Source: Eubacteriales bacterium
GTDB lineage: Bacteria > Bacillota > Clostridia > Oscillospirales > CAG-272
Direction of reading: 5' to 3'
Length of the DNA: 64,000 nt
Assembly: GCA_045612185.1 (NCBI GenBank)
Contig: JAZKYO010000108.1
Coordinates: 3,352 to 67,351 of the forward strand
The notes beneath the pieces are model-generated. The model was not told the DNA's origin. It did no database searches and was given only the letters and a program-made list of their open reading frames with translations. The position numbers were made by a program, and so were the translations under genes. How positions within the stretch are numbered: position 1 is the stretch's first letter; every line of letters starts with the position of its first letter. Positions 4,559 through 60,535 of the stretch are shown piece after piece.

Positions 4559-4583
4559 TCTATCAATCTCCTTTTCTGTTATT

Positions 4584-6767: not shown

Positions 6768-6779
6768 TTGCTACCTCCT

Positions 6780-7652: not shown

Positions 7653-7653
7653 A

Positions 7654-8601
7654 TTACGTACCTACCTTTGCAATAATATTCTTTACAAGCATATTGGAGC
7701 CTACCATTACAAGGAACAGGATAACCGCAATAGCCGAAGAATAACCTATCTCGAAACGCTGTCCGCCGTAGTCGTCAAGGTGGTGCATTATCGTATGCGC
7801 CGCATAGTCAACCGACGGGAATCCACAAAGTGCTGTAACGACACCGCCGAAGCCGAACGCGCCGGTAATAGCCATGATAGCACCGAACATAAGCTGAGGT
7901 CCCATATTGGGAAGTGTGATATACCAAAGCTCCTGCCATCTGTTCTTAACGCCGTCAACCGCGCCTGCCTCAAACTGAGACTTATCTACGCCCTGAAGAC
8001 CTGCGATGAACGCAAGGAAGGACGTACCAAGCGAGGTCCAAAGTGCAACCACGATACACAAAGGCATTACGTAGGATGCGTTCTGAAAGAACTGAATAGG
8101 CTCTGTTACAAGTCCCATTTCAAGAAGTTTGGAGTTTACCCAACCGTAAGCGTCACCCGAGAAGAGGGTCTGCCAGATAAGGTAAACCTGACCCGAAATG
8201 GAGGGAGCGTAGAATACAAGAGTAACCACAGCTCTGATTTTGGGAGGAAGCTCGTTGATAAACCAAGCAACCAGGAAAGACATAAGGTAGGATACAGGAC
8301 CTACTATGATAGCGAAAATAAATGTATTCTTAACCGCTGTGAGGAATATGTCGTCATCAAGGAAGAGACGCACATAGTTGTCAACGAACACAAAGTTCGG
8401 CCACTCAAGCAAGTTAAAGTCCGTAAAGCTGAACACGATTGACAGTACAACCGGCGCGATGGTGAACAAGGTGAAAATGAGCATAAAGGGAGCGACCATT
8501 ACATATGCTACCCAGTTGCGCTTCATTTCCTTCCAAGTCCACTGCGCCATTGTCATGTCTTTACGCGAAACAGCTTTCTTTTCTGCTGTTTTCTTTGACA
8601 T
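7654..8601 (-). CDS. Sugar ABC transporter permease (MalF-type)
   Basis: 315 aa. The N-terminus KEMKRNWVAYVMVAPFMLIFTLFTIAPVVLSIVFSFTDF is typical of CUT1-family permeases, and the protein has 6 TM segments. Confidence 0.9.
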   Translation of the reverse strand: MSKKTAEKKAVSRKDMTMAQWTWKEMKRNWVAYVMVAPFMLIFTLFTIAPVVLSIVFSFTDFNLLEWPNFVFVDNYVRLFLDDDIFLTAVKNTFIFAIIVGPVSYLMSFLVAWFINELPPKIRAVVTLVFYAPSISGQVYLIWQTLFSGDAYGWVNSKLLEMGLVTEPIQFFQNASYVMPLCIVVALWTSLGTSFLAFIAGLQGVDKSQFEAGAVDGVKNRWQELWYITLPNMGPQLMFGAIMAITGAFGFGGVVTALCGFPSVDYAAHTIMHHLDDYGGQRFEIGYSSAIAVILFLVMVGSNMLVKNIIAKVGT

Positions 8602-8651
8602 TACTTTTCTCCTTAATTAATAGAATAGATTTTTATTTCTGATTAAGCAAA

Positions 8652-12293: not shown

Positions 12294-12515
12294 AAGTTTT
12301 CCTCCTGAAAAATTGCTGAGCATAATGGTCGCCACGAAGCCCGAAGGGGTTAACCGCGGTATAACACGAACGTCATAAGACGAGGTGGGGTGTTCTGCAC
12401 GGAATCCAATAGGCTTATCCGAAGACAAAGCCCTCGTATCCCCCGAAAAAAGACTATTGATTTTCACCAAAAGCCGTTCAAACGAGAAACGGGCGCAAAA
12501 ATGCCATATTTCAAT
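12294..12515 (-). promoter_or_regulatory. Long (~220 nt) structured 5' leader of the SBP operon
   Basis: It lies between the predicted TSS (about 12515) and the ATG at 12293. A UUCG-capped hairpin GGCUUUGUC-UUCG-GAUAAGCC spans 12412-12432. A long-range helix pairs ACGAGG with CCUCGU (12432-12437 with 12380-12385). A second UUCG hairpin is UAUGACG-UUCG-UGUUAUA. A 5'-proximal hairpin (12473-12494) is followed by UUUU. Confidence 0.45.
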
Positions 12516-12521
12516 GACATT

Positions 12522-12550
12522 ATAATACCACACAACAACCGAAATGTCAA
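12522..12550 (-). promoter_or_regulatory. Sigma-A-type promoter of the SBP operon
   Basis: On the minus strand: TTGACA (12550-12545), a 17-nt spacer, then TGgTATTAT, an extended -10 (12527-12522). Confidence 0.6.
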
Positions 12551-22488: not shown

Positions 22489-23397
22489 TTGATTTTGGAA
22501 ATGTCCAAGGCTCTTGTTTATACCGCCGTTTTCTCTTTGCTTATCACTCCTGCTGATTTCAGGCTTGCCAAGTCGGTGGGGGCTATAGATATCCCTAAAG
22601 ACGCTCGGCGAATGCATACAAGACCGATACCCAGGCTTGGTGGGATTTCTATATTTGCGTCCTTCGTTATTCTCTGCTTGTTTTTACAAAAAGAAATCGC
22701 ACCCGACTTTTTATTTGTCTTATCGGGTGCGTTTTTTATTACAGTTTTGGGAGTAACTGACGACGCTTTAGGTCTATCGGCAAAATTCAAGCTTACCGCG
22801 CAAGTATTAATATCGGCAACAGTTGCATTTGGAATAAGTTATTTCGAAGATTGGAATCCGATTCTAATACCGCTTGGTATTGTTTGGCTGTTAACACTTA
22901 TCAACGCCCACAATTTTATAGACGGACTTAACGGGCTGTGCGCGGGAATCGCTATAATTGAATCATTTGCTTTAGGCGTTTTATTCATTTTGGGCGGCAA
23001 CACGCTTGAGGCGCTCGTTTGCTTTATTCTCTGTGGAGCTTGCGTAGGCTTTCTTCCCTACAACTCTCCAAAAGCCAAGCTTTTTATGGGAGACACCGGC
23101 TCTACGTTTATAGGTTTTACCTTGGGAGTACTTTCTCTTGAGCTCCTTAACGGTAGCAACGGTTTTGCCGATTTTTGCTCTGTAATCTTGATTCTGATAT
23201 TTCCATTGATCGATATTTCTTTTGCCGTCACCCGAAGAATTTTGAAAGGTCAAAGCCCCTTTGTGTCCGACCGTTCTCACATTCACCATTTCATTGCCGA
23301 CAGAGTGGGACACCGTCAAGCCTCCGTTTTAATCAGAATATCTGCATTGATTTCAGCGACCTTGGGAATATTGCTATACCTTACTTTTTCCTCTTAG
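22489..23397 (+). CDS. Polyprenyl-phosphate N-acetylhexosamine-1-phosphate transferase (MraY/WecA/TagO family), short
   Basis: RRMHTRPIPRLGGISIF, NAHNFIDGLNGLCAG and FMGDTGSTFIGF; multi-TM. The TTG start lies after GGAGAG. Confidence 0.85.
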   Translation: MILEMSKALVYTAVFSLLITPADFRLAKSVGAIDIPKDARRMHTRPIPRLGGISIFASFVILCLFLQKEIAPDFLFVLSGAFFITVLGVTDDALGLSAKFKLTAQVLISATVAFGISYFEDWNPILIPLGIVWLLTLINAHNFIDGLNGLCAGIAIIESFALGVLFILGGNTLEALVCFILCGACVGFLPYNSPKAKLFMGDTGSTFIGFTLGVLSLELLNGSNGFADFCSVILILIFPLIDISFAVTRRILKGQSPFVSDRSHIHHFIADRVGHRQASVLIRISALISATLGILLYLTFSS

Positions 23398-24208
23398 ATT
23401 TGCGGTATTCCCGCGGGCTGATTCCGTACGTTCGCTTGAATATTTTTGAAAAATAATTGTAGTCCGGAACACCGCACCGTCTACCTATTTCATTTACAGG
23501 CAAGGCGGTGCTTTCCAGATACTCGCAAGCCTTACCAAGCCTGCGCGATTTGATATACTCCGCAGGAGTTGCTCTGAAATATCGTTTAAAAATAGAATAT
23601 ATTTCGCTGTGGGAAAGGTGAAAGACCGAACAAAGCTTTGGTACTGACAAGTCATCTGCCATGTTATTGTTTATGTATTTTCCAATGGCGACGTCTATTC
23701 TGTTTTCCGAATAATCTATCAGATTTTTCAAATATTCGTAGCTTGTGCATGCGTCAAGAATCCGCATGGCTGAATGCAACTTTTCAAGCTCAATGGTGGG
23801 AAGATTGTCATACCTCTCCCTAAGCTTGTCAAGCTTATCCTGTGGAAGTCTGTGGGAAATGCCGTCAAAATCGGCATTTCCCTTTAGTTTTATCTGTCCG
23901 AGAACCATATATCCAATAATTTTTTGGTCGTATACAATAGGCGACATACACTCTAAAAGTCCAGCGTGGCAAGTATAAAAATACTGCTTGTAGTTTTTTC
24001 TGCACTCATCAAAGGCGTGGCGGTCGCACTGTTTGCATCTTTTATCCATTTCTCCGTCCTGCCTCAAAAGCTCGCAAAAGGGAGACAGCTTTTCGGGATA
24101 GAAAGACAGTTCTTCTTCGTCGCTGTCATAAATACACACTTTTAAACCGACAAGATTATAAAAGTCGCGCAACAATTCGCGCATTTGGGCTAAGTTATAA
24201 ATTTCCAT
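23381..24208 (-). CDS. AraC-family transcriptional regulator with an N-terminal PocR sensor domain
   Basis: The N-terminus FYNLVGLKVCIYDSDEEELSFYPEKLSPFCELL...CKQCDRHAFDE...YTCHAGLLE is PocR-like. The C-terminus has an AraC HTH (LSVPKLCSVFHLSHSEIYSIFK..., RCGVPDYNYFSKIFKRTYGISPREY). Confidence 0.88.
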   Translation of the reverse strand: MEIYNLAQMRELLRDFYNLVGLKVCIYDSDEEELSFYPEKLSPFCELLRQDGEMDKRCKQCDRHAFDECRKNYKQYFYTCHAGLLECMSPIVYDQKIIGYMVLGQIKLKGNADFDGISHRLPQDKLDKLRERYDNLPTIELEKLHSAMRILDACTSYEYLKNLIDYSENRIDVAIGKYINNNMADDLSVPKLCSVFHLSHSEIYSIFKRYFRATPAEYIKSRRLGKACEYLESTALPVNEIGRRCGVPDYNYFSKIFKRTYGISPREYRKSKRKK

Positions 24209-24307
24209 ATTGGTATTCCTCTGTACAAAATCACCATATTTATATATAAATTATACTATACCCGAAAAGAAAAATCAAGTACAATTAGAATATAAGGAGG
24301 GGATTTT

Positions 24308-25780
24308 TTGAATTATTTATCTATTGACGTAGGAACCACCTGTTGCAAATGTCAACTTTTTTCAGAGCGCGGTGAAATTCTCGAATATTTTTCCGAGGAA
24401 TACGGCTTTTTAACTGTTGACGGAAGAAACTACATAGACACGGCTAAAATCCTGAGCTGTCTCAAATCCATGATATCCAAAATCGCTGAAAAGCACGAAA
24501 TTTCTTCTTTCTGCGTTTCATCGTTGGGCGAATCCTTTGTTTTGCTTGACAAAGACGACAAACTGATTTTTCCGCCCATGCTGTACACCGATGAGCGAGG
24601 CAGCGACGAGGTTGAGCTAATCTCAAGCAAAATCGGAGCTGAAAAAGCCTTTGAGATTACCGGTGTATTTCCGCACAGTATGTATTCCCTTTCTAAACTG
24701 TTGTGGATAAAAAACAATCACGGTGAGATTTATGAAAAAGCCGACAAGCTGATGTTAGTTGGCGAATACGTAGGTTACCTGCTTTCGGGCAAGCGCGTTA
24801 TTGACTATTCACTTGCTTCAAGAACAGGGGCGTTTGATATTGAAAAGCTCGAATTTTCAAAAGAGATTTTGGACGAGTTTAATATTCCGATTTCGCTCTT
24901 CTCGCGACCGATGCGCGCAGGAGCCGTGGTAGGAGAAATCAGGCAAGAGCTAAAGAATGAGCTTAATATCAAGGGAAATCCGGTGCTTGTACTCGGTTCT
25001 CACGATCAAATCTGCGCCTCGCTTGGCGCGGGCGCGTTAAAAGACGGAGACGCGGTTGACGGAATGGGAACGGTTGAGTGCATAACCGCACTTTTTTCCA
25101 AAAAGGCTGACAATCACGCAATGGGACGTCAGGGATATCCTTGTGTACCTTACGCGGTTGAGGGTATGTACTGCACGTACATTCTTAATTTCTCATGCGG
25201 CTCGGTAATTAATTGGTTTAAAAAGAAAATCATGCACTCCCACAAAGGCGATGATGCGGATTTCTTTACCTATATTGAGAAGAATATACCAAGCACCCCC
25301 TCGGGGCTTTTGGTTCTTCCCTATTTTGGCGGTGCTGCCACACCTTATCAGGATATTTTGGCGCGCGGTGCAATTTGGGGATTGACTTCAGAGACGGAGG
25401 ATTCGGTACTTTACAAGGCGTTAATGGAGGGCTTGGCTATGGAAATGCGCCTTAACGCGGAAACTGTAAAGAATTACTCAATAGAGCTCTCAAACCTCAT
25501 AGCCACGGGTGGAGGCGCAAATTCCGAAAAATGGTTACAGATAAAAGCCGATATTCAAGGGCTTCCAATTAAAGTTCTCCGTTCAAGCGAGGGCGGTCTT
25601 TGCGGATGCGCCATGCTTTCTGCGGTAGCTCTCGGTGGGGCTGAAAGTATTGAAACAGCCAAGGATATATTTGTGAAATACACAAAAGAGTTTTACACAA
25701 ATGAAGAATCGCGCGAGAAATACGCGCCCTATTACGAAAAGTACAAAAAATTATATCATATAACAAAGGAGCTGTATTAA
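24308..25780 (+). CDS. FGGY-family carbohydrate kinase
   Basis: LSIDVGTTCCKCQLF (N-terminal ATPase motif) and ATGGGANSEKWLQIKADIQGLPI. The TTG start lies 7 nt after AAGGAGG. Substrate cannot be assigned by eye. Confidence 0.88.
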   Translation: MNYLSIDVGTTCCKCQLFSERGEILEYFSEEYGFLTVDGRNYIDTAKILSCLKSMISKIAEKHEISSFCVSSLGESFVLLDKDDKLIFPPMLYTDERGSDEVELISSKIGAEKAFEITGVFPHSMYSLSKLLWIKNNHGEIYEKADKLMLVGEYVGYLLSGKRVIDYSLASRTGAFDIEKLEFSKEILDEFNIPISLFSRPMRAGAVVGEIRQELKNELNIKGNPVLVLGSHDQICASLGAGALKDGDAVDGMGTVECITALFSKKADNHAMGRQGYPCVPYAVEGMYCTYILNFSCGSVINWFKKKIMHSHKGDDADFFTYIEKNIPSTPSGLLVLPYFGGAATPYQDILARGAIWGLTSETEDSVLYKALMEGLAMEMRLNAETVKNYSIELSNLIATGGGANSEKWLQIKADIQGLPIKVLRSSEGGLCGCAMLSAVALGGAESIETAKDIFVKYTKEFYTNEESREKYAPYYEKYKKLYHITKELY

Positions 25781-25781
25781 A

Positions 25782-27176
25782 ATGAAATTTGCTTTGTATT
25801 TTGGAAACAGAGGCTTTATGCCTGCAGAACTTATTGAAGGCGCAAGAGTTGACATGATTAAGGCTGTTACCGACGCTGGACACGAATATCTCGTTATGGA
25901 CGAAAAGGCTACCCGTTACGGTGCGGTTGAGACACGTGACGAAGGCAGACTTTATCACGACTGGCTTAAAAGTCACGAGGGTGAATATGACGGCGTTATT
26001 CTTTGTATGCCTATTTTCATTGATGAAAACGGGGCTATAGCCGCGCTTCAGGATGCGGGTGTTCCGATTCTTATGCAAGCTTATCCCGACGAGATCGGAA
26101 AAATGGATTTCAAGCACCGCCGCGACGCGTACTGCGGAAAATTCTCGGCAACCGACGTTTTCTATCAGTACAAAGTTCCATTTACCGTTATGAAGCCTCA
26201 CGTTGTTCACCCTTTGAGCGACGCATTCAAGCAAAATCTTGCGGATTTCGCCGCTATCTGCCGAGTTGTTAAGGGTATGAAGCGCTTTAATCTCGGTTGT
26301 ATCGGCGCAAGAACAACCGCTTTCAAGACCGTTAGATTTGACGAAGTAACTCTTCAGAGATACGGCATAAATCTTGAAAGTTTTGACCTTTCGGAGCTTA
26401 TTTTCAAGGTTGGTCAAAAGGCTGATGACGATGCGGCTGTCATAGCTAAACAGAAGAGACTTGAGGCTTACACAGACTTCTCGCTCGTTCCCGAAAAAAG
26501 CAAGACCATGCTTGCGAAAATTTCAGTAGTTATTGACGAGTACATAGAAGAATATCACCTTGACGCCATTGCATTAAGATGCTGGAACGAAATGGAGACC
26601 ATTCTTCGCGTTTGTCCTTGCGTACTCATTTCTGAGCTTAACGACAGAGGTATTGTATGCTCTTGCGAAATTGACATCACAAGCGCTATCACCATGAGAG
26701 CTATGGCACTCGCTTCTGAAAAGCCTACCGCCTGCCTTGACTGGAACAACAACTACGGTGATGACGAGAACAAGGTTATTCTTTTCCACTGCGGTCCTGT
26801 GGCGCAGTCGCTTATGGCAGGAAAAGGACAGGTTACCGAACATAAAATGTTCGCCAAAAACGATCCCGGCTGCGGTTGGGGTACAAACGAGGGACGCATT
26901 GCGGCGTTCGACATGACCTTCTCCAACGGATTTACCGAGGACGGCAAGCTTAAGGTTTACGTAAGCGAAGGAAAATTCACGGACGAGCCTATCGAAAAAG
27001 CATACTTTGGATGCGGCGGCGTAGCTGAGATTCCCGACCTTCAGAATAAGCTTATAAAACTTGCCAAGGGTGGATTTAAACACCATACAACGGTAGGCAT
27101 GGGACACATGAAATACGTTCTTGAGGAAGCATTTACCACTTATCTCGGCTACGAGCTGATAGATATTGAAAATTAA
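25782..27176 (+). CDS. L-fucose/L-arabinose isomerase family protein
   Basis: 464 aa starting MKFALYFGNRGFMPAELIEGAR, with ...ALRCWNEMETILRVCPCVLISELND... This is a FucI/AraA-like architecture. The gene starts 1 nt after the kinase stop. Confidence 0.8.
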   Translation: MKFALYFGNRGFMPAELIEGARVDMIKAVTDAGHEYLVMDEKATRYGAVETRDEGRLYHDWLKSHEGEYDGVILCMPIFIDENGAIAALQDAGVPILMQAYPDEIGKMDFKHRRDAYCGKFSATDVFYQYKVPFTVMKPHVVHPLSDAFKQNLADFAAICRVVKGMKRFNLGCIGARTTAFKTVRFDEVTLQRYGINLESFDLSELIFKVGQKADDDAAVIAKQKRLEAYTDFSLVPEKSKTMLAKISVVIDEYIEEYHLDAIALRCWNEMETILRVCPCVLISELNDRGIVCSCEIDITSAITMRAMALASEKPTACLDWNNNYGDDENKVILFHCGPVAQSLMAGKGQVTEHKMFAKNDPGCGWGTNEGRIAAFDMTFSNGFTEDGKLKVYVSEGKFTDEPIEKAYFGCGGVAEIPDLQNKLIKLAKGGFKHHTTVGMGHMKYVLEEAFTTYLGYELIDIEN

Positions 27177-27187
27177 GGAGAATAAAA

Positions 27188-28033
27188 ATGTTAGTAGGAT
27201 TAAAAGAAATAACCGCAGAGGGTAAAAAAAGAGGAATTGCCATAGGCAACTTCAACACTCCCAACCTTGAGTGTCTTATTGCGATACTTGATGCTGCTGA
27301 AGAACTTAACGTTCCGATTATCATTGCTCACGCTCAATGCCACGAGGATGTTGCACCTCTTGACAAAATAGGCCCTGTTATGGTAGAATTGGCTAAGAGA
27401 AGCAAGGTAAAGGTTTGCGTTCATCTTGACCACGGCGAGGATTTTGAATACTGCAAACGCGCCATAGCGCTTGGGTTCACGTCTATAATGATTGACTTTT
27501 CCACACTTTCTTACGAGGACAACGTAAAGGGCACAGCCGAAGTTGTAAAGTACGCTCACGAAAGGGGCGTTGACGTTGAGGCTGAGCTTGGTTGCATGCC
27601 TGCGAGAGAAGGTGGCGGTGAGGAAACAGCTTCAAAGGAGTCACTCTACACAGACCCTGAGTTGGTTCCCGATTACGTTGGTCGCACGGGCGTTGATGCG
27701 CTTGCGATAGCATTTGGAACAGCTCACGGAATCTACAAGGAAAAGCCCGTCCTCAACATGGACATAATAACAAAAGTAGTTGAAAAGACCGCCCTTCCCT
27801 TGGTTATGCACGGGGGAAGCGGAATTTCTCACGACGAATACCGCGAGGTAATCAAGCGCGGTATTGCCAAAATCAACTACTACTCCTACATGTCCTACGC
27901 CGGTTACGCAGCGGCAAAGGCAACAGTTGAAAGCAAGGCTGCCGATTTCTATCACAATCTTGCGCTGAACGCGCAAACGGCTATGAAGGAAAACGCTATT
28001 ACCACGCTTAAAGTATTTTCAAACATAAAATAA
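27188..28033 (+). CDS. Class II ketose-bisphosphate aldolase family (FBA/tagatose-bisphosphate aldolase-like)
   Basis: GIAIGNFNTPNLE, VHLDHG, VEAELG and LVMHGGSGIS are the metal and phosphate motifs of FBA class II. Confidence 0.88.
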   Translation: MLVGLKEITAEGKKRGIAIGNFNTPNLECLIAILDAAEELNVPIIIAHAQCHEDVAPLDKIGPVMVELAKRSKVKVCVHLDHGEDFEYCKRAIALGFTSIMIDFSTLSYEDNVKGTAEVVKYAHERGVDVEAELGCMPAREGGGEETASKESLYTDPELVPDYVGRTGVDALAIAFGTAHGIYKEKPVLNMDIITKVVEKTALPLVMHGGSGISHDEYREVIKRGIAKINYYSYMSYAGYAAAKATVESKAADFYHNLALNAQTAMKENAITTLKVFSNIK

Positions 28034-28044
28034 GGAGCGTTACA

Positions 28045-28953
28045 ATGAACGGAAAAATTTCTAATTTTTCACAAGTAGCAAGTATCAGAAGATACGAGTA
28101 CACAACGGGAAAAGAAAAGGGACTTGAGGTTATTGACTGTGATAACGGCAAAATCAGATTTTTGCTTAACGTGTCAAAAGCACTTGACGTTATGCAGCTC
28201 TATCACGAAGGGCAAAATATGTCGTTCGTTTCAAAAAACGGATTTACCGCAAGGGAGATTCCTTTCGGCAACCGTTTTGAAGGCGGTATGGTCTACACAT
28301 GCGGACTTGACAGCCTTGGGCGCAGAGACGGATTTGAGCTTCACGGCACGCTTCACAACACACCCGCGCGTGTAACTATTGCGGAATGTGACGAAAACGG
28401 AATAAGAGTAGAGGCTGTTATTGAGGCAACCGAGTTATTCGGAAAAAATCTCGTTCTTCACCGCACGGTTTCGTCGGCACTCGGAAGTGACAAAGTAACG
28501 ATTGAGGACACACTTACAAACAACGGCTTTCTCAGCGAGGATTACTGTATTCTTTACCACGTTAACATGGGTTACCCGATGCTTGACGAAGGTGCGAAAA
28601 TAGAAGCAGACATTTCGGAATTTGAAACCCGAACCGAATGGGCAAAGCAAAACGCTGACGGCAAATTTTACATTACCGACTCGATTCCCGGTAACCTCGA
28701 AACCTGTTATTTCCTTAAAATGAACAAGCCCGAGATATCGCTTATCAATGAAAATATCGGAAAGCGTTTTACCGTAAAGTATTCCAAAGACACACTTCCC
28801 TGTTTTATTGAATGGCACAGCATGGCAAGCGGCGACTACGCCCTTGGCTTTGAGCCTGCCTCCACGACGCTTGACGCTAATTTTGCTTACACCAAAATAG
28901 ACGCCGGTGAAAAGGTAAATTTCAAAATAGAGCTTTCGGTAAACAAAATATAA
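28045..28953 (+). CDS. Aldose-1-epimerase-like protein (DUF4432-type)
   Basis: 302 aa with ...IRRYEYTTGKEKGLEVIDCDNGKIRFLLNVSKALDV...FELHGTLHNTPA..., resembling DUF4432 mutarotase-fold proteins. It is the last gene of the kinase-isomerase-aldolase operon. Confidence 0.65.
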   Translation: MNGKISNFSQVASIRRYEYTTGKEKGLEVIDCDNGKIRFLLNVSKALDVMQLYHEGQNMSFVSKNGFTAREIPFGNRFEGGMVYTCGLDSLGRRDGFELHGTLHNTPARVTIAECDENGIRVEAVIEATELFGKNLVLHRTVSSALGSDKVTIEDTLTNNGFLSEDYCILYHVNMGYPMLDEGAKIEADISEFETRTEWAKQNADGKFYITDSIPGNLETCYFLKMNKPEISLINENIGKRFTVKYSKDTLPCFIEWHSMASGDYALGFEPASTTLDANFAYTKIDAGEKVNFKIELSVNKI

Positions 28954-53209: not shown

Positions 53210-54691
53210 ATGAGAAATCTTATCAAAGCACTCGCGCTTGTGTTGGCGTTGCTTACAGTTCTCTCCTGCTTTGCCGCTTGTGGCGGAAACGGAGACGACA
53301 CCACTCTCCCCCAAGCATCGGGAGAAAACACTAACGTAGACAAATACGGTCGTGATTACATCGCAGACTCAATCCCCGCGGATCTCCGCTTCGACGGTGA
53401 AACCGTAACTTTCTTTACAAGAAGTGATAACGCTTATCACGCTATCGAAATGGACACCGACAACACTATCAACGATACTGTTAACGATGCTATATTTTAC
53501 AGAAACGCTACCGTTGAACAGCGTCTCGGCATCACAATAGACCAAATTTCTCAGCCCGGATCGTGGGGCGCTCATACCGAGTGGCTTCAAGCGCTCAGAA
53601 ATACGGTTCTTACCAAGACCGGAGACTACGACTGCGCGGCTATCTACGCATCGCAGGGATCCGCTCTCGCGACAGAGGGTATTTACTACAACGTAAAGAA
53701 CATTGAGCATCTCGACCTCAAAAAGCCTTGGTGGAATCAGACTCTTCTTGACGAGCTTGAAATATTTGATACCATTTATTTCCTCGGCGGTGATATAGCG
53801 ATTTCGCAGATTACAAGAGCAGGTCTTACCGTTTACAACAAAAGGCTGTTCAACGAATATTTCAAAGAGTTGAGCGTTTATGAGCTTGTTGACAACTACG
53901 ATTGGACCATTGACAAGCTTTACGAGCTTTCCTCCCAAGTATGGGTTGATGAAAACGGCTCGGGTGTTGCTGACGACGGCGACCTTGTTGGCTTTCTTGA
54001 CTATGGGGGCGATGGCTGGCTTGACATTTGGATTGCCGCTCTCGGTGTAAACATCACCGAAAAAGACAGTGAGGGATATCCCTACATAGCCATATACAAC
54101 GAGAGATCGGTTGACGCATTTGAGAAGCTTCAGCGCTTAAATTATGACAACCCCGGTGCAATTCCGACGGCAATCCCCCGCGTTGACACTACGTTCAACA
54201 AAGGAAACGTTCTCTTCGCTTCTTCTTATCTTGAGGCTTGCGAGGAATACAGAAATATGACAGATTCCTACGGAGCCCTTCCCATGCCTATGTATGACAA
54301 AGAGCAGGGGCATTACGCGTCATATCCCCAAAACGGTTGCTCGCTTATAACCGTTCTTTCCACATGCCAGAACACAGAACTTATAGGCGCGACCCTTGAG
54401 CTTATGGCGGCAGAGTCTTACAGACAGGTCATCCCCGAATATTATCAGGTTTGTCTACAGGGTAAATACTCCGCTGACGCTGACGACGCAAGAATGTACG
54501 ACAAAATCACCCAGGGTATAAAGCTTGATTTTGGATTTATATACGCCACCGCAAGTATCGCTTCCGTAAACGCTCTTTTCAGAGACCTTGACGGAGATAT
54601 TGCGCAGTCTTATCAATCCAACAAGGTTAAGTACGAAACGGCTCTTGAAGATCTTATAACCGCGCTTGACGATATATCCTTTATGTCTTAA
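53210..54691 (+). CDS. Lipoprotein, extracellular solute-binding-protein-like (LplA-type), with no adjacent permease genes
   Basis: Lipobox LSCFAAC|GG. 493 aa with an SBP-like alternation (VTFFTRSD..., DCAAIYASQG..., LPMPMYD...). Monocistronic, with its own promoter (TTGATT-17-TATACT) and terminator. Confidence 0.7.
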   Translation: MRNLIKALALVLALLTVLSCFAACGGNGDDTTLPQASGENTNVDKYGRDYIADSIPADLRFDGETVTFFTRSDNAYHAIEMDTDNTINDTVNDAIFYRNATVEQRLGITIDQISQPGSWGAHTEWLQALRNTVLTKTGDYDCAAIYASQGSALATEGIYYNVKNIEHLDLKKPWWNQTLLDELEIFDTIYFLGGDIAISQITRAGLTVYNKRLFNEYFKELSVYELVDNYDWTIDKLYELSSQVWVDENGSGVADDGDLVGFLDYGGDGWLDIWIAALGVNITEKDSEGYPYIAIYNERSVDAFEKLQRLNYDNPGAIPTAIPRVDTTFNKGNVLFASSYLEACEEYRNMTDSYGALPMPMYDKEQGHYASYPQNGCSLITVLSTCQNTELIGATLELMAAESYRQVIPEYYQVCLQGKYSADADDARMYDKITQGIKLDFGFIYATASIASVNALFRDLDGDIAQSYQSNKVKYETALEDLITALDDISFMS

Positions 54692-54701
54692 GCTTTTCAG
54701 C

Positions 54702-54741
54702 AATCGGTTGGAACGTGAAATCACGTTCCAACCGATTTTTA
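54702..54741 (+). terminator. Strong rho-independent terminator
   Basis: Perfect 16-bp stem AATCGGTTGGAACGTG/CACGTTCCAACCGATT (54702-54717 with 54722-54737) followed by a T-run. Confidence 0.85.
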
Positions 54742-54851
54742 CTTTGTAAAATACACAAAAAGCCTTTGCTTTTTTTGGTAATAAATACGCTTGATTTTTC
54801 GATGTCTGTGTAGTATAATGAATGTATATTCTAAAAATGAGGAAGCTTATT

Positions 54852-56369
54852 ATGACAAAAACTCAAAAACTTTTATCACTTATTCTTGCGGCAATTATGC
54901 TGCTTTCCTGCCTTTCGGCATGCGGGGAACCCAAAGAACCTGTTGACACAGACCCCACAGACTACACCGAAAAAACCTTTCAAACTTACTCGGAAAACGG
55001 AGACTATTTTTTCAATACTACCGAGATTTTGAACTTCACAGACCTTCCAACAAAAGATATTAAGGGTCTCAGGCTTACAAGTCTCAACTCAAAATTTACT
55101 TTTGCGGCGCAGTGCGAGGGTAAGGTAAAACTTTATATATGGACGGATTCGGTTTCCGCGCCCTATCGTGACGTCGCGGTTAAAATAACGGTTGACGGAG
55201 CAAACGAAAAAACCGAAAGATGGCTGTCAAGCGGCGGCAACGCGCTTATCGCCGAAGTCCAAAAAGGAAATCACACCTTTACAATCGAAAAGCTTTCGGG
55301 CGGTGCCAACCTTTACATAGGTGCGGTCACCCTTTGCGGTGAGCTGACCGAAGCGCCGAGAGTCAACGTCGAAAACGGCGTATTTGTAGAAGTGTTCAAG
55401 CCAGCGGGCGGTGACGACGAATTCTGCTCATTCAACGTTTACACCCAAACCACGCATCCTTCAGGCGAGTATTACATCAGATACAATTTCGTGTACGAAT
55501 ATGATGATATAGACGAAACGCTTACTTGGGGTACCGGCTCCAACACCGGATCGAACCGAATGAACTACCGTATCAAGACCGCGCAGATAGTTAAGAAAAC
55601 CGGCAACCCGGGATTCCTTAACATACACAACATCCTTCAATCCGGAGAAATTTCTCTTGCAATTAAAGAGCGCAACTTGGAAACAGGCAAAAACGCCGGT
55701 GATTTCGTAGGCGGTTTCCACGGAGACGAAAATCTTAAAAACGCCTCTCTTGTACTTGACGGAAACAAAGAAATAGATCTTTATCAGGGAGAAGCAGGAT
55801 TCTACAACTGTTCCACCGTGGAATTCAAGCAATTCTCCACGATATGCCGTTGCCACACTCCGCTTGAGGCGGTAATGGACCACAACCAACACTATCTTAT
55901 CGACACAAACGGAATAAGACTCGATCAGCAGGTCGTATGGCTTTCGGGTGATTTCGCACCCACTCTTGACCAGACTTACCTTCAAATGTTCACGTTAGTA
56001 AGAACCAACCCCGACAAAACAGGTGATTTCCTTACAGACACCGTCACACTTCTTGATGAAAACGGCGGATTCCTTGCAAAATCAAAAGTTTCGGAAATCG
56101 ACCCAGGTGAAAAGGAAGGAATAATCGCATTGCAAAGATCCGACGCAAGATACGCCGAATATACGGGGGAGGAAAAAGGTATTTACGCAAAGGTAGGTTT
56201 CCAGTTCCCTGATTCAAACTGCACCATTCACACGGCGAGAATTTCGGTAAGAAAATACGGCGACAGCAAGTGGTATCCTTCATTCAAGGGTAAAACCGAC
56301 ACCCCAACCGTAGGCGAAGAGTGGAACGTATGCAGCTTCTACTACATTGACTACAATCCCGCTGAATAA
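54852..56369 (+). CDS. Uncharacterised lipoprotein: N-terminal beta-sandwich/CBM-like module plus a domain paralogous to 57872..58972
   Basis: The track ORF is trimmed to the ATG at 54852, 6 nt after GAGGAAG. Lipobox LLSCLSAC|GE. Blocks shared with the paralog: NYRIKTA, LQSGEIS, AGDFVGGFHGDEN, TYLQM, GDSKWY, YYIDYN. Confidence 0.8.
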   Translation: MTKTQKLLSLILAAIMLLSCLSACGEPKEPVDTDPTDYTEKTFQTYSENGDYFFNTTEILNFTDLPTKDIKGLRLTSLNSKFTFAAQCEGKVKLYIWTDSVSAPYRDVAVKITVDGANEKTERWLSSGGNALIAEVQKGNHTFTIEKLSGGANLYIGAVTLCGELTEAPRVNVENGVFVEVFKPAGGDDEFCSFNVYTQTTHPSGEYYIRYNFVYEYDDIDETLTWGTGSNTGSNRMNYRIKTAQIVKKTGNPGFLNIHNILQSGEISLAIKERNLETGKNAGDFVGGFHGDENLKNASLVLDGNKEIDLYQGEAGFYNCSTVEFKQFSTICRCHTPLEAVMDHNQHYLIDTNGIRLDQQVVWLSGDFAPTLDQTYLQMFTLVRTNPDKTGDFLTDTVTLLDENGGFLAKSKVSEIDPGEKEGIIALQRSDARYAEYTGEEKGIYAKVGFQFPDSNCTIHTARISVRKYGDSKWYPSFKGKTDTPTVGEEWNVCSFYYIDYNPAE

Positions 56370-56373
56370 GCAA

Positions 56374-56403
56374 ACAGCCGCGCACCGCGCGGCTGTTTTT
56401 TTG
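56374..56403 (+). terminator. Rho-independent terminator
   Basis: Stem ACAGCCGCGC/GCGCGGCTGT (56374-56383 with 56387-56396) followed by TTTTTTT. Confidence 0.85.
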
Positions 56404-56513
56404 AAAACCACATCAAAATATTGGCTTTGTAAGAAAAACGGACTTACAATTTTGTTTTTAAAAAAATCTTTGCTTTTAAGGGTTGTTTAAGCGGAAATCT
56501 TTTGTAAAAAGTA

Positions 56514-56542
56514 TTGCATTTTGAGAAAATTTATTGTATAAT
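56514..56542 (+). promoter_or_regulatory. Promoter of rhaA
   Basis: TTGCAT (56514-56519), 17 nt, TGTATAAT with the -10 at 56537-56542. Confidence 0.6.
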
Positions 56543-56579
56543 GATGTTGTAAAATTTTAGTTCAATAAGGAGAAATGTT

Positions 56580-57830
56580 ATGCAAAATATGTATTCTTAC
56601 GCTCGCGAAAAGTATGCTGCTATCGGAGTTGATACCGAGGCGGCTATCGCAAAGCTTTCTTCCATGCCCATTTCGCTTCACTGCTGGCAGGGCGACGACA
56701 TAAAAGGCTTTGATAACAAGAGCGAGCTTTCAGGCGGTATTCAGACCACAGGTAATTATCCCGGCGCAGCACGCAATCCCGAAGAGCTTCTTGCCGACCT
56801 TGACAAGGCGTTTTCTCTTATGCCCGGAAAGCAGAGACTTAACATTCACGCTTGCTACCCCATCTTCGCTGAAGGCGAGTGGGCTGACAGAGACGCGCTT
56901 GAACCCAAGCACTTCGCTAAATGGGTAGAGTTTGCAAAGGAAAGAGGACTTGGACTTGACTTTAACCCCTCTTACTTCTCTCACCCCCTCGCGGCTGACG
57001 GTCTTACACTTTCTCACCCCGATGAAAAAATCAGAAAATTCTGGATAAGACACGGTATTGCTTGTATCAGAATTTCCGAGTATTTCGCAAAAGAAACAGG
57101 AACGCCCTGTCTCATGAACATTTGGATTCCCGACGGATACAAAGATATTCCCGCTGACAGACTTGGTCCAAGAAAGAGATTTGCCGAGTCGCTTGACGAA
57201 ATTCTCGCTTGCGGTTACGACAAAAATCTCGTTTACGTAGCTCTGGAGTCCAAGGTTTTCGGAATTGGCGTTGAGTCTTATACCGTCGGATCTGCTGAAT
57301 TTGGCTTGAACTATGCCGCTTCCCGCGGAATTATGAGCCTTATGGACAACGGACACTATCACCCCACCGAGGTGGTTTCCGACAAGCTTTCTTCTATGCT
57401 TCTCTTCAACGAGAAGGTAGCGCTTCACGTAACCCGCGCTGTTCGTTGGGACAGTGACCACGTTGTTCTTCTTGACGATGAAACAAAGGAAATCGCCAAC
57501 GAGATAGTTCGCAACGACGCTTGTGACCGCGTACTTATCGCGCTTGACTACTTTGACGCGAGCATCAACCGTCTTTCGGCTTGGATTGTTGGTATGAGAA
57601 ACATGCAAAAGGCGCTTCTCTGCGCTCTTCTTACACCTCACGCTTGCTACACAAAGATGCAGGACGAGGGCAACACCACCGAGCTTATGGCTAAGCGCGA
57701 GGAGCTTAAGAGCTATCCTTGGGGCGAGGTCTGGGCAGAGTTCTGCCGCAGAAACGGCGTTATCGAGGACGAAAAGTGGTTCGACGAGATTAAGACCTAC
57801 GAAAAAGAGGTTCTTTCCAAGAGAGTTTAA
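56580..57830 (+). CDS. rhaA: L-rhamnose isomerase
   Basis: Collinear with E. coli RhaA as I remember it: HCWQGDD, GGIQTTGNYPG, LDFNPSYFSHPLAADG, NIWIPDG, ESKVFGIGVESYTVGS, HYHPTE, VRWDSDHVVLLDDET, DYFDASINR. Confidence 0.95.
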   Translation: MQNMYSYAREKYAAIGVDTEAAIAKLSSMPISLHCWQGDDIKGFDNKSELSGGIQTTGNYPGAARNPEELLADLDKAFSLMPGKQRLNIHACYPIFAEGEWADRDALEPKHFAKWVEFAKERGLGLDFNPSYFSHPLAADGLTLSHPDEKIRKFWIRHGIACIRISEYFAKETGTPCLMNIWIPDGYKDIPADRLGPRKRFAESLDEILACGYDKNLVYVALESKVFGIGVESYTVGSAEFGLNYAASRGIMSLMDNGHYHPTEVVSDKLSSMLLFNEKVALHVTRAVRWDSDHVVLLDDETKEIANEIVRNDACDRVLIALDYFDASINRLSAWIVGMRNMQKALLCALLTPHACYTKMQDEGNTTELMAKREELKSYPWGEVWAEFCRRNGVIEDEKWFDEIKTYEKEVLSKRV

Positions 57831-57840
57831 ACCTACATAA

Positions 57841-57872
57841 AAACGGCTGTCCGTTTGGACAGCCGTTTTCTT
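57841..57872. terminator. Bidirectional terminator between rhaA and the convergent paralog
   Basis: 12-bp stem AAACGGCTGTCC/GGACAGCCGTTT (57841-57852 with 57857-57868). Confidence 0.85.
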
Positions 57873-58972
57873 TATCTTTCTGAATTATAGTCGATGTAAT
57901 AGAGCAAGTCAAGATCCCACTCGTCGCCGTATTTGGGCTGTGACGTGGAATTCTTGGATTTGAAGGTGCAGTACCATTTATTGTCACCATGGGTTCTTAT
58001 CATGATTTTTGCCGACTGACATTCTGCCGAGTCGTTCAGAATTTTGAAGCCGACAAGACCGTAAACGCCCATATCACCGTTATACTCAACGGTGCGGTTT
58101 ATCTTCTCGGTTTCAACACCTGCCCAACCGAAATCACCCGAATTATAGTTCGAGGTATTAGCCTCATTTACAAGCTTTCCGCTTTCATCAAAGAACTTGA
58201 GATTATCGCAAATTCTTCCATCCTTTACGCCGTTATTAACGCGCCAGAAGGTACACATCTGCAAATATGTTCCATCATTATCAAGTGCGTATTTGCCGCC
58301 ATCCTCATAATCAAAGGTAACAAATTTAGCCTTTTGTCTATTGTGAACGCCAAAGGTATCAAATGTATAGCTTTGGCTATGCTCGATAATATTAACACCG
58401 GGAGTGTTGCAACGGTTTATAAACGTAGTTTGCTCAAAGGTTGCAACGTCACCGATATATTCCTTTTCCTCTTTTCCGTCGAGGGAAATCTCTACACCGT
58501 CAACGGTCAGTCTGACCATAGGCTTTCCGTCTGTGTATTTGATATTTTCGTCACCGTGGAAACCGCCTACGAAATCCCCTGCTCTGGCGCTTCTGTCAGC
58601 GAACATTTCCTTTGCCGCCATAGATATTTCGCCCTGTTGGAGAACGTCGCAAATCTTATCGTATCCATTTCCGTTCCATTTGCAAACGCACGCGGTTTTT
58701 ATGCGGTAATTGCTTCTGTTAAAGCCTCCGTTTGAGCCGTTGTACCAAGTAAGCGGAACGGCTTCATCTCCTTTGCCCCAAATCTCTCCGATAGCATTTT
58801 TTTCATAAATCAAGCAGTATTTAACGTAGCAACAGCCGCTTTTATCCGACGATTTTACATATACGTCGAAGCTACCGAAGTCCTGTCCCTCCTGTGCTTT
58901 ATGTAAAACCACCCTAATTGCCGATTTCTTTGCCGTAAGTTCTGTTCTTACTGAATATTCCTTCATAGTCAT
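57872..58972 (-). CDS. Uncharacterised cytoplasmic protein, paralog of the C-terminal domain of 54852..56369
   Basis: 366 aa with no signal peptide. It shares the NYRIKTA, LQQGEIS, AGDFVGGFHGDEN, TYLQM, GDNKWY and YYIDYN blocks with the lipoprotein. Confidence 0.8.
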   Translation of the reverse strand: MTMKEYSVRTELTAKKSAIRVVLHKAQEGQDFGSFDVYVKSSDKSGCCYVKYCLIYEKNAIGEIWGKGDEAVPLTWYNGSNGGFNRSNYRIKTACVCKWNGNGYDKICDVLQQGEISMAAKEMFADRSARAGDFVGGFHGDENIKYTDGKPMVRLTVDGVEISLDGKEEKEYIGDVATFEQTTFINRCNTPGVNIIEHSQSYTFDTFGVHNRQKAKFVTFDYEDGGKYALDNDGTYLQMCTFWRVNNGVKDGRICDNLKFFDESGKLVNEANTSNYNSGDFGWAGVETEKINRTVEYNGDMGVYGLVGFKILNDSAECQSAKIMIRTHGDNKWYCTFKSKNSTSQPKYGDEWDLDLLYYIDYNSER

Positions 58973-58983
58973 TCTCCTAAAAT

Positions 58984-59003
58984 GCCCCGACCGAGGTCGG
59001 GGC
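58984..59003 (-). terminator. Hairpin downstream of the SPFH gene
   Basis: GC-rich stem GCCCCGAC/GTCGGGGC, followed on the minus strand by AUUUUA. Confidence 0.6.
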
Positions 59004-59011
59004 TTATTTTG

Positions 59012-59983
59012 TTATTTTGTTTCTTTGGTTTCTTTTGCGATTTCGGTCAAGCCCGTTACCAAGCCCGCGAGAGACTGTATCTCTGAGGGAATGATGATCT
59101 TGGTCGCCTTTCCGTCTGCAGCCTTAGCGAAGGCTTCAAGGCTCTTTATCATAATAACCGCCTGCGAGGGATCAGCCTCATTTATCATTCTGATACCAGC
59201 CGCGTTAGCTTCCTGCACCTTAAGAATAGCTTCTGCCTCACCTTCAGCCTCGCGGATAGTTGCTTCTCTTACAGCCTCTGCCTTAAGAATAGCCGCCTGC
59301 TTTTCAGCCTCAGCTTCAAGAATCATGGACTGCTTACGGCCTTCGGCTACGAGGATAGCCGAGTTTCTTTCACCCTCAGCACGAAGGATAGACTCGCGGC
59401 GCTCACGCTCAGCCTTCATCTGCTTTTCCATCGCATCCTGAATTTCCTTGGGGGGAATAATATTTTTAAGCTCAACGCGAGTTACCTTAATTCCCCAAGA
59501 GTCGGTTGCTTCGTCAAGAATAGCACGCATCTTGGTGTTAATTATGTCTCTTGACGTAAGCGTTCCGTCAAGCTCAAGCTCACCAATAATGTTACGAAGT
59601 GTGGTAGAAGTAAGATTCTCAATAGCCGCCATGGGATTTGCATGTCCGTAAGCAAAGAGCTTACAGTCGGTAATCTGATAGAACACCACGGTATCTATCT
59701 GCATACGCACGTTATCTCGGGTAATAACCGGCTGAGGCGGGAAATCAACAACCTGCTCCATAAGGTTTATCTTAAGAGCTACTCTTTCAAAGAAAGGTAT
59801 TTTAAGGTGGAAACCGGTCTTCCACGTATCGTGATAAGTTCCGAGTCTTTCAACTACGTAAGCTCTCGCCTGCGGAACAATGTTAATGCAGGAAACGAGA
59901 ATAGCCAACGCGATAACAACCATCACTCCGATACCGAAAATAACCGGAGATGCCGCAAGGGGCGCCAATAATGCAAGTTTCAT
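59012..59983 (-). CDS. SPFH/Band-7 (stomatin-like) membrane protein
   Basis: N-terminal TM helix. SPFH core (IVPQARAYVVERLGTYHDTWKTGFHLKIPF...TRDNVRMQIDTVVFYQI). Ala/Glu-rich coiled coil. Confidence 0.93.
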   Translation of the reverse strand: MKLALLAPLAASPVIFGIGVMVVIALAILVSCINIVPQARAYVVERLGTYHDTWKTGFHLKIPFFERVALKINLMEQVVDFPPQPVITRDNVRMQIDTVVFYQITDCKLFAYGHANPMAAIENLTSTTLRNIIGELELDGTLTSRDIINTKMRAILDEATDSWGIKVTRVELKNIIPPKEIQDAMEKQMKAERERRESILRAEGERNSAILVAEGRKQSMILEAEAEKQAAILKAEAVREATIREAEGEAEAILKVQEANAAGIRMINEADPSQAVIMIKSLEAFAKAADGKATKIIIPSEIQSLAGLVTGLTEIAKETKETK

Positions 59984-60007: not shown

Positions 60008-60442
60008 TTATTTTTTGCGGCAAATAAGCTTAACGCCCGACACCGCAGTAATTTCAACAATAGCTCCGTCCTCGATAGGCTCTCCGTCCTCTGAACGTGC
60101 GCTCCAATATTTTCCGTCAACCTTTACGCATCCATCACCGCTTACATTGTCGATTTTCTCAACAACCACGGCGCTTGATCCTACAACAAGATCCAAATTG
60201 GTTGCTTTGGTCTTATCATTTGACAGTTTCTTTTTGAAAAAGAGCTGAGACATTATGATAAGTACAACGGACAATACGAAGAATATAAGCACCTGAACCC
60301 AAATCTCAAGCTGTAAAGACGCAAAAATCATACCCAACACTGCGCCGGGAACAAACCAGATTGATACCAACGCGGTAGTTGCGCCTTCGCACACAAGAGC
60401 GAGAACAATAACGGCCAGCCACACCCAAATCATAACCTCCAT
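60008..60442 (-). CDS. NfeD-family membrane protein (partner of the SPFH protein)
   Basis: The track ORF is trimmed to the ATG at 60442, after GGGAGG. TM helices are followed by a C-terminal OB-fold (VKVDGKYWSARSEDGEPIEDGAIVEITAVSGVKL). Confidence 0.88.
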   Translation of the reverse strand: MEVMIWVWLAVIVLALVCEGATTALVSIWFVPGAVLGMIFASLQLEIWVQVLIFFVLSVVLIIMSQLFFKKKLSNDKTKATNLDLVVGSSAVVVEKIDNVSGDGCVKVDGKYWSARSEDGEPIEDGAIVEITAVSGVKLICRKK

Positions 60443-60535
60443 AAGTATACCTCCCAATTCGATTAGGCTCTCCGTTTCCGGCTAAAAACGGAGGCAAGAC
60501 GCCACACATCAAAAAACTCTCCGCGCCTTTAATTA

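Follow-up and report, generated by a model that had tools for sequence, protein, structure and literature searches.

A protein family of gut Clostridia and phage tail fibres, apparently undescribed, with a tentative link to rhamnose-containing glycans

Introduction

What do two related proteins that match no known family do on either side of an L-rhamnose isomerase gene? The question arises from a stretch of 64,000 nucleotides of a Eubacteriales genome (contig JAZKYO010000108.1; this whole stretch is referred to here as the window), in which rhaA is preceded by the gene for a lipoprotein, protein A, and followed on the opposite strand by the gene for a shorter relative, protein B. An original prediction, made from the sequence alone, held that the two represent a new carbohydrate-active family acting on rhamnose-containing glycans outside the cell and on their oligosaccharides inside it. 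The analysis reported here upheld a new, carbohydrate-linked family with a rhamnose association, whereas catalysis and the pairing of an outer with an inner paralogue were not established. Our preferred reading, which we put just short of probable, is that the core domain common to both proteins acts on rhamnose-containing glycans, and does so probably as an enzyme (a glycosidase or a lyase) rather than as a passive binder.

Two Paralogues from an Apparently Undescribed Family

BLASTP aligned residues 174-503 of A with residues 16-364 of B over approximately 350 residues at 37% identity and 53% positives (E 7e-64), a similarity far beyond chance, and every block that had been listed as shared (NYRIKTA, LQ(S/Q)GEIS, AGDFVGGFHGDEN, TYLQM, GD(S/N)KWY, G(E/D)EW, and YYIDYN) was found within this alignment. 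Both open reading frames (ORFs) lie where the original prediction had placed them, and its assignment of A to the cell surface and of B to the cytoplasm was likewise supported. A carries a signal peptide followed by a lipobox of the form [LVI][ASTVI][GAS]C (MTKTQKLLSLILAAIMLLSCLSA-C24, reading LSAC), the cysteine of which is kept at the aligned position in orthologues, and B has no signal peptide. The true start of B is probably the second ATG, at position 58966 (MKEY..., 364 aa); an AGGAG ribosome-binding site lies 7 nt 5' of it, and the same 364-aa form is found in the homologue P0001 and in all orthologues (P- and L-numbers are our labels for family proteins and for the loci compared). At one of these loci (L007, positions 6193-7715), the A orthologue is split into ORFs of 133 and 366 aa, P0023 being the C-terminal piece, which reflects either a frameshift or pseudogene or else an assembly error.

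The claim of a new family held at the level of the databases. When A, B, the L028 member, P0031, P0036, and 10 divergent members were compared with Pfam, NCBIfam, and PHROGs, no family match was returned, only noise (E>=0.04). The precomputed Pfam annotation is blank for all listed family members, whose source names all read "hypothetical protein", and PDB sequence searches with A, B, and the family profile gave noise only. No published description of the core family was found in literature searches. A word-indexed search recovered 36 clusters only, all from uncultured gut Clostridia; an exhaustive profile search yielded 1,075 clusters (50% identity, E<=1e-3), with 468 at E<=1e-10 and 87 at E<=1e-30. 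Among species-representative genomes, nearly all cellular members come from metagenome-assembled genomes (MAGs) of uncultured Eubacteriales, Oscillospiraceae, and other Clostridia of ruminant, deer, and human guts, and several genomes encode multiple paralogues. In the libraries and literature searched, neither the family nor its motif set, its size, or its employment by both gut Clostridia and phages appears to have been described before; its fold class and modular logic are already familiar.

Strictly Conserved Residues

Conservation was counted over 133 diverse full-length core domains, the numbering being that of B, in which the hallmark motif spans D133-E142. The residues kept in 90-100% of these domains are Y52, R90, E115, D133, G136, G137, H139, G140, D141, E142, H198, M239, R244, K332, Y334, and W352, twelve of which are polar or aromatic. 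Within the motif, G136, H139, and G140 are invariant (100%), D133, G137, and E142 reach 97-98%, and D141 is replaced by tyrosine in one subfamily. The central conserved residues are retained in the phage copies too. The shared motifs are conserved across the family, except for the cysteine of the "RC" block, which is not universal. A role for this cysteine (C188, in the motif NRCNTP) in catalysis or as a metal ligand was discarded, since only the close clade retains it. Also discarded was homology to the "GHGHxD" motif of heparinase II/III, for which nothing was found beyond a weak fold-class match (5jmd, E 1e-2).

Such strict conservation of polar and aromatic residues is expected of active sites rather than of the surface of a carbohydrate-binding module (CBM), and E115, D133, H139, D141, E142, H198, R244, K332, and Y334 may form a single pocket. 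The GGFHGDEN cluster named in the original prediction stands as a candidate catalytic site. The conserved residues admit another interpretation, which we regard as rather unlikely: the core would be a non-catalytic glycan-binding domain (a lectin or receptor-binding domain), with A, as a surface lipoprotein built of two binding modules, handing captured glycan to other enzymes and the neighbouring solute-binding protein (SBP), the giant surface homologues serving as adhesins, the phage copies as receptor-binding tips, and the conserved polar residues as a sugar- or metal-binding site. For a CBM, however, the retention of twelve charged or aromatic residues at 90-100% down to approximately 20% identity would be unusually strict.

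Predicted Structure

The AlphaFold2 models of B and A scored a predicted local distance difference test (pLDDT) of 92.7 and 89.5 and a predicted template-modelling score (pTM) of 0.91 and 0.84, respectively, and portray the core of approximately 330 residues as an all-beta domain of approximately 24 strands. On these models the core is a putative galactose-mutarotase-like supersandwich, an assignment that applies at class level only. Nearly all significant Foldseek matches in the PDB were supersandwich domains of carbohydrate-handling proteins, including aldose 1-epimerases, domain 5 of LacZ, OpgG/D (GH186), GH97, GH36, and GH38 (GH, glycoside hydrolase), in addition to the C-terminal domains of heparinase III and of the polysaccharide lyases (PL) PL8 and PL33. 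The matches had a probability of 0.9-1.0, E-values of 6e-5 to 1e-2, template-modelling (TM) scores of 0.3-0.46, and a root-mean-square deviation (rmsd) of 9-14 Å. The best matches overall were found in BFVD, where two phage tail proteins superposed on the core with TM-scores of 0.68 and 0.65 (rmsd 4.2-4.3 Å, E 4e-15 and 2e-14). A purely binding core would sit well with these phage tail proteins as its closest structural relatives, with the role of the supersandwich as an accessory sugar-binding domain in many of the PDB matches, and with the lack of any GH, PL, or carbohydrate esterase (CE) signature detected by Pfam.

The fold class also raises the idea, which we consider very improbable, that the core is a monosaccharide enzyme of the aldose-1-epimerase type, for instance a non-orthologous L-rhamnose mutarotase (an analogue of RhaM) that supplies RhaA with the appropriate anomer, the extracellular and phage copies being derived binding versions. 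Stand-alone aldose 1-epimerases do give the best whole-chain TM-scores in the PDB (3mwx, 0.41 by query length (TMq) and 0.46 by target length (TMt); also 1l7j, 1snz, 3os7, and 3imh), and R90, H139, and H198 together with the acidic residues follow what we take to be roughly the chain order of the Arg/His/His/Glu sugar site of galactose mutarotase. Nevertheless, these TM-scores are low, and no sequence or profile similarity connects the family with the mutarotase clan: there is no Pfam Aldose_epim or DUF4432 match, and hhalign of the family profile against the DUF4432 protein encoded elsewhere in the window (a mutarotase-clan protein) returned a probability of 0.4 and an E-value of 0.15, which indicates no relationship. 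An epimerase would, moreover, have no obvious use on a CBM-bearing lipoprotein, on secreted proteins of 1,000-2,700 aa, or on phage tail fibres, all of which keep the same residues.

The N-terminal part of A had been described as a CBM-like beta-sandwich, and the model agrees, its predicted jelly roll superposing on both CE2_N and CBM36. The rmsd to 2waa (the CE2 N-terminal domain) was 3.0 Å over 138 columns by Foldseek, and the CBM36 structures 7ay3 and 1w0n were matched at TMt 0.63 and 0.56, with 8x8h (TMt 0.45) and 4dev as further matches. The superposition thus places the module in the CBM6/35/36 or CE2_N jelly-roll fold; at the level of sequence it has no Pfam match, to CE2_N or any other family, and a relative, P0045, scored 24.9 bits against Pfam CE2_N, below the 27.9 cut-off. 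A supersandwich fold class in company with a CBM-like partner module is typical of carbohydrate-active proteins, and the predicted models therefore support the carbohydrate link that had been proposed.

Domain Architectures and Phage Copies

In 132 of 134 representatives, the core is found at the very C-terminus of the protein. Fifty-five of the 134 are at most 400 aa in length (<=400 aa) and mostly stand-alone, several of them having been read directly as lacking a signal peptide, and 41 exceed 700 aa, with lengths of up to 2,778 aa. The giant homologues often contain regions resembling leucine-rich repeats (LRR), LamG domains, or beta-helices. The CBM-like module occurs in 35 of the 134 and directly precedes the core in 32 of these 35, which makes module plus core the commonest architecture; the L028 protein is of this type and has no signal peptide. 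A Pfam scan of seven giant homologues found no partner catalytic domain above threshold in any of them (7/7).

Certain members are built more elaborately. P0037 (1,030 aa) carries two tandem units, each made of a Cys-rich segment, a CBM-like module, and a core, and each unit is preceded by CxxC-type motifs that resemble a small zinc-ribbon segment; Cys-rich segments likewise precede the unit in P0030, L036, L039, L041, and L042. By our reading of the sequence, P0105 appears to have an SGNH/CE2-like segment between module and core, and P0056 a metallophosphoesterase-like segment with LRR-like repeats.

These architectures bear on both sides of the choice between binding and catalysis. A C-terminal core in 132 of 134 proteins, often huge and LRR-, LamG-, or beta-helix-like, would suit an adhesin. 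On the other hand, approximately 40% of the representatives are short, stand-alone proteins, several without a signal peptide, and an enzyme fits better than a lectin because such forms are common. A CBM-like module directly 5' of the core gives the usual layout of a CBM plus a catalytic domain, whereas a CBM-like module joined to a second pure binder would have no catalytic part, in spite of being the commonest architecture.

The phage setting comprises an Acinetobacter prophage (L043) and eight IMG/VR contigs, where the domain forms either the distal part of proteins of 680-984 aa or a stand-alone protein of 307-330 aa. Three of these loci (L044, L045, and L050) have the family gene directly 3' of a gpJ-like central tail-fibre gene, and the N-terminus of the L050 protein matches tail-fibre PHROGs. 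PHROGs itself has no family for the core domain, with only the N-termini of phage proteins being matched. The IMG/VR pattern scan and BFVD were the sole sources of phage relatives; among 50,697 INPHARED phage genomes, tblastn with B or with the Acinetobacter tail-fibre domain as query gave no match. A position at the distal end of tail fibres, after gpJ, is what would be expected of a receptor-binding tip; there is also established precedent for the cleavage of rhamnosyl linkages by tail-fibre and tailspike tips, as in the endorhamnosidases of P22 and Sf6.

In the Acinetobacter prophage (Acinetobacter sp. ANC 4558, NZ_NEGH01000021.1; L043, positions 8237-10624), the family domain lies at the C-terminus of a 795-aa tail-fibre protein with three repeats of approximately 120 aa. 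The same prophage harbours two ATP-grasp-like ORFs and a GH10-like ORF between the gpJ-like and lysis genes, which are unusual passengers.

Rhamnose and Pectin Genes near Family Members

The genes around more distant members carry the proposed link to rhamnose beyond the window. In L028, where the family member is 31% identical to B, the genes encode in turn a rhamnulokinase-like kinase, RhaA, an unknown ORF, and the family member; kinases closely similar to that of L028 (E 1e-105 to 1e-124) are encoded in the vicinity of members in L036, L037, and L039 and directly adjoin one in L052. GH78 rhamnosidase genes are found near members in L013 and L029. In total, a gene for RhaA, a rhamnulokinase-like kinase, or GH78 neighbours a family member in 6 of approximately 26 non-phage lineages, the clade of the window included, and the family members of these lineages are only 20-35% identical. 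A rough expectation is fewer than one lineage, based on 3-5 such genes per genome of approximately 2,500 genes and approximately 400 flanking genes, which is an order-of-magnitude figure and not a controlled one. GH28 genes also recur near family members, and P0321 (in the L056 cluster) is surrounded by Pel9A-like/GH141-like, F5/8-type-C (CBM32-type), SLH, and ABC-permease genes. The expected co-occurrence with rha genes was accordingly seen in part: the six lineages bear it out, and most members have no rhamnose neighbour.

A cytoplasmic lectin beside a rhamnulokinase and RhaA (L028, L052), or in a degradative cluster (L056), would be hard to rationalise. For an anomer-converting enzyme, by contrast, it is favourable that cytoplasmic members adjoin RhaA and rhamnulokinase-like genes in L028 and L052, at which loci no canonical rhaM was noticed.

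We must also consider the reading, improbable in our judgement, that the proximity to rhaA is incidental, with A and B being simply two paralogues at a variable spot between cdaA and nfeD-band7 and having a function unrelated to rhamnose, whether on another envelope polymer or in a structural role. Other members have as neighbours genes for GT2, WecG, EamA, Peptidase_S11, TrkAH, and UvrA, as well as DUF711 and 5'-3' exonuclease, of which the first six fit such a reading. It is opposed by the rhamnose-pathway or rhamnosidase genes in six lineages with members only 20-35% identical, and by the recurrence of pectin-type carbohydrate-active enzymes (CAZymes), namely GH28, PL9-like, and GH141-like. 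The remaining evidence on this reading comes from the locus in the window itself.

The rhaA Locus

The order SBP-A-rhaA on the plus strand recurs in L007, L016, and L019, and L004 and L005 show SBP and A up to the end of the contig. RhaA adjoins A in 4 genomes. B is convergent with rhaA, with a hairpin shared between the two, and lies on the minus strand 40 bp downstream of band7/nfeD. The order nfeD-band7-B is kept in L001, L007, L016, and L018; L017 keeps nfeD and B, with band7 not detected. In L001 and L018, no rhaA, SBP, or A is found at the position of B, and SBP-A-rhaA constitutes an insertion or deletion relative to L001, the flanking genes being cdaA and nfeD/band7. The MAG RGIG3927 has SBP-A-rhaA on one contig (L019) and B on another (L018). 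What had been taken for two paralogues around rhaA is in fact two separate modules, SBP-A-rhaA and nfeD-band7-B; B does not form a unit with rhaA because the two genes are convergent with a hairpin between them and nfeD-band7-B is kept where rhaA is missing.

This arrangement modifies the idea of a small polysaccharide-utilisation locus with inside and outside paralogues. SBP-A-rhaA is indeed a conserved module, but B is separate, and the region 53.2-59.0 kb holds only SBP, A, rhaA, and B. It is no usual Gram-positive polysaccharide-utilisation locus because a permease, an ATPase, a regulator, rhaB, and rhaD are all lacking from it. The window encodes a single FGGY kinase, which lies at 24.3 kb, is xylulokinase-like (below the cut-off), and belongs to an operon distinct from the rhaA locus.

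The locus weighs against an L-rhamnose mutarotase, given that B and rhaA are not transcribed together and that B is retained where there is no rhaA. An incidental association gains from the insertion or deletion of SBP-A-rhaA relative to L001, from nfeD and band7 as the partners of B, and from the origin of all close homologues in one narrow clade, for which reason the synteny carries little independent weight; it loses from RGIG3927, where A stays with rhaA and apart from B. A role for B in membrane microdomains, as nfeD-band7-B might suggest, was rejected because the six instances are confined to a single narrow clade and because B is set apart from band7 by a hairpin and by a ribosome-binding site of its own.

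Proposed Function

The glycan-active reading is favoured because one function has to fit cytoplasmic, CBM-lipoprotein, giant surface, and phage forms that share the same residues. Under this reading, A would be tethered to the membrane on its outer side, its CBM-like jelly roll holding a polysaccharide on which the core would act, and A, the neighbouring solute-binding lipoprotein, and RhaA would together feed L-rhamnose into catabolism. For B, a cytoplasmic copy of the core transcribed separately behind nfeD-band7, the substrates would be oligosaccharides taken up by the cell or a glycan within it. In giant surface proteins, where it is C-terminal, and at the tips of phage tail fibres, the core would act on cell-surface polysaccharides. 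A bolder form of the proposal, about which we are more doubtful, is that the core is the catalytic module of a new CAZyme family consisting of a supersandwich only and specific for rhamnosyl linkages. In that case gut Clostridia would deploy it on lipoproteins, on giant wall-associated proteins, and in the cytoplasm, and phages would have borrowed it as a tail-fibre depolymerase, a non-beta-helix counterpart of the P22 and Sf6 endorhamnosidases.

A number of points weigh against the glycan-active reading. What the analysis shows is the paralogy, the size and conservation of the family, its fold class, its modular architectures, and its gene neighbourhoods; the substrate, the catalysis, and the pocket are what we infer from these. 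Instead of a catalytic site, the conserved residues might make up one that is structural or binds a metal. The TM-scores to PDB structures are low (0.3-0.46), hence the restriction of the fold to class level, and many of the matching enzymes have the supersandwich only as an accessory domain without a catalytic role. The top structural matches are phage tail proteins (TM 0.65-0.68), for which simple receptor binding is the default expectation, and the copies on phage tail fibres and giant surface proteins make a non-catalytic binding role possible. No sequence-level link from the family to any characterised enzyme was found, the DUF4432 comparison by hhalign included. The locus in the window is without a permease, rhaB, and rhaD, and no sugar gene is conserved beside B, whose constant neighbours are nfeD and band7. 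In approximately 20 of the 26 lineages the flanks retrieved contain no rhamnose gene, and housekeeping genes surround several of the stand-alone members.

The matter is of some consequence, seeing that the major substrates in the gut include rhamnose-rich glycans, such as the pectic rhamnogalacturonans RG-I and RG-II, gum arabic, and the capsules and wall polysaccharides of bacteria, and that the degradation of these by uncultured Clostridia is poorly understood. With more than 1,000 clusters, a conserved polar site, and links to rhaA, rhaB, GH78, GH28, and PL9, the family is a concrete candidate to fill a gap among the known enzymes or recognition functions, and its phage tail-fibre copies would provide a new type of receptor-binding or depolymerase module. 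It merits an entry in Pfam/InterPro at the minimum and possibly in CAZy. Short soluble members (B with 364 aa; P0141-like proteins of approximately 300 aa) and confident models make the family directly testable.

Features of the Locus and Other Gene Clusters in the Window

The features of the locus are collected in Table 1. The identity of rhaA is secured by Pfam RhaA (5e-191) and by the NCBIfam equivalog NF002203 (654 bits against a cut-off of 572). The 493-aa lipoprotein encoded 5' of A has no Pfam match of its own; it has 204 homologues, and SBP_bac_1 or SBP_bac_8 is carried by 3 among 120 listed. On the strength of these homologues it can reasonably be called a divergent solute-binding protein. 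The orphan SBP that had been proposed next to A is in agreement with these SBP-like homologues and with the absence of any permease or ATPase gene adjoining it. The lipoprotein family is multi-copy within genomes and nearly invisible to Pfam, with up to five paralogues on one 66-kb contig in these Clostridia. Within the 40-bp gap between band7 and B lies a perfect GC-rich palindrome (GCCCCGACC-TCGG-TCGGGGC; positions in Table 1), which may be a weak terminator or a processing or stabilising element and may attenuate or stabilise the transcript.

Table 1. Coordinates of the features at the rhaA locus, numbered from the first nucleotide of the window.
Feature	Position	Strand	Basis or remark
Divergent ABC solute-binding protein (putative), 493-aa lipoprotein	53210..54691	+	First gene of conserved SBP-A-rhaA module
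Terminator-like hairpin 3' of SBP gene	54702..54737	+	16-bp stem, then T-run
Promoter-like site 5' of A	54791-54819		
Protein A, 505-aa lipoprotein, MTKTQK start: CBM-like jelly roll + family core	54852..56369	+	
Signal peptide and lipobox of A (…LSCLSA-C24)	54852..54923	+	Read from sequence; modelled helix at residues 3-22
N-terminal beta jelly-roll module of A (predicted), approximately residues 38-168	54963..55355	+	Translation and Foldseek
Core domain of A, residues 174-505, all-beta supersandwich (predicted)	55371..56366	+	BLASTP, orthologue alignment, AlphaFold2 model
DFVGGFHGDE motif in A	55701..55730	+	Translation
rhaA, L-rhamnose isomerase	56580..57830	+	Pfam and NCBIfam
Hairpin between convergent rhaA and B, likely bidirectional terminator	57840..57869	.	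13-bp stem
Protein B, 366 aa (probably 364), cytoplasmic stand-alone core	57872..58972	-	No signal peptide
DFVGGFHGDE motif in B (D133-E142)	58547..58576	-	Translation
GC-rich hairpin between band7 stop codon and B start	58984..59003	-	Then only 4 T
band7 (SPFH/HflK-like)	59012..59983	-	Conserved upstream neighbour of B
nfeD	60008..60457	-	Conserved upstream neighbour of B

Two further clusters in the window are recorded here. Positions 23381-28953 contain a separate sugar operon with genes for a PocR/AraC regulator (on the minus strand), an FGGY kinase, a Fucose_iso_C-type isomerase (weakly sulfoquinovose-isomerase-like), a class II ketose-bisphosphate aldolase, and the DUF4432 (mutarotase-clan) protein. 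A minus-strand cluster at 935-12533 encodes a 1,207-aa DUF5696 protein, a 727-aa Yip1/TPR/NHL protein, a 290-aa protein without a Pfam match, a 315-aa ABC permease-like protein, and a 1,293-aa protein with a CBM35-like segment, and may be a glycan-uptake system.

Comparison with Known Systems

The mutarotase-like supersandwich superfamily (1l7j, 3mwx, LacZ domain 5, and OpgG/OpgD) resembles the core, as modelled, in its all-beta, two-sheet build, similar size, and handling of carbohydrates, and both aldose 1-epimerase and GH186 are catalytic with the supersandwich domain alone. It differs in that the TM-scores reach only 0.3-0.46, with no detectable sequence or profile similarity, and to our knowledge neither D-x-x-G-G-x-H-G-[DY]-E nor [DY]-N-K-x-Y of the core family is a signature of any supersandwich family. 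The phage tail proteins A0A8S5TMN5 (a "distal tail protein" of Siphoviridae sp. ctKgQ2, 906 aa) and A0A516LKA2 (955 aa) are structurally nearer (TMq 0.68 and 0.65 to the core); the comparison is one of predicted models at 15-18% identity, and in these proteins the domain is part of a much larger virion protein. The CE2 esterases (2waa, 4dev) are similar to A in having a jelly roll immediately 5' of the main domain, the downstream domain being an SGNH esterase in CE2 and a predicted supersandwich in A and most of its relatives.

Last, the CAZymes directed at rhamnose (GH78/GH106, PL4/PL11/PL26, the L-Rha-alpha-1,4-GlcA lyase PL42, and the P22/Sf6 enzymes) have no sequence similarity to the core, and their catalytic folds, being (alpha/alpha)6, beta-propeller, beta-helix, or multi-domain, are different from it. 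PL26 (5xqo) does appear among the Foldseek matches for A (E 1.6e-5, TMq 0.35), probably through shared beta-sandwich accessory domains. What these enzymes have in common with the core family is the substrate class proposed for it here, together with their setting, for they likewise co-occur with rha genes, GH28, and PL9, and some of them are carried on phage tails.

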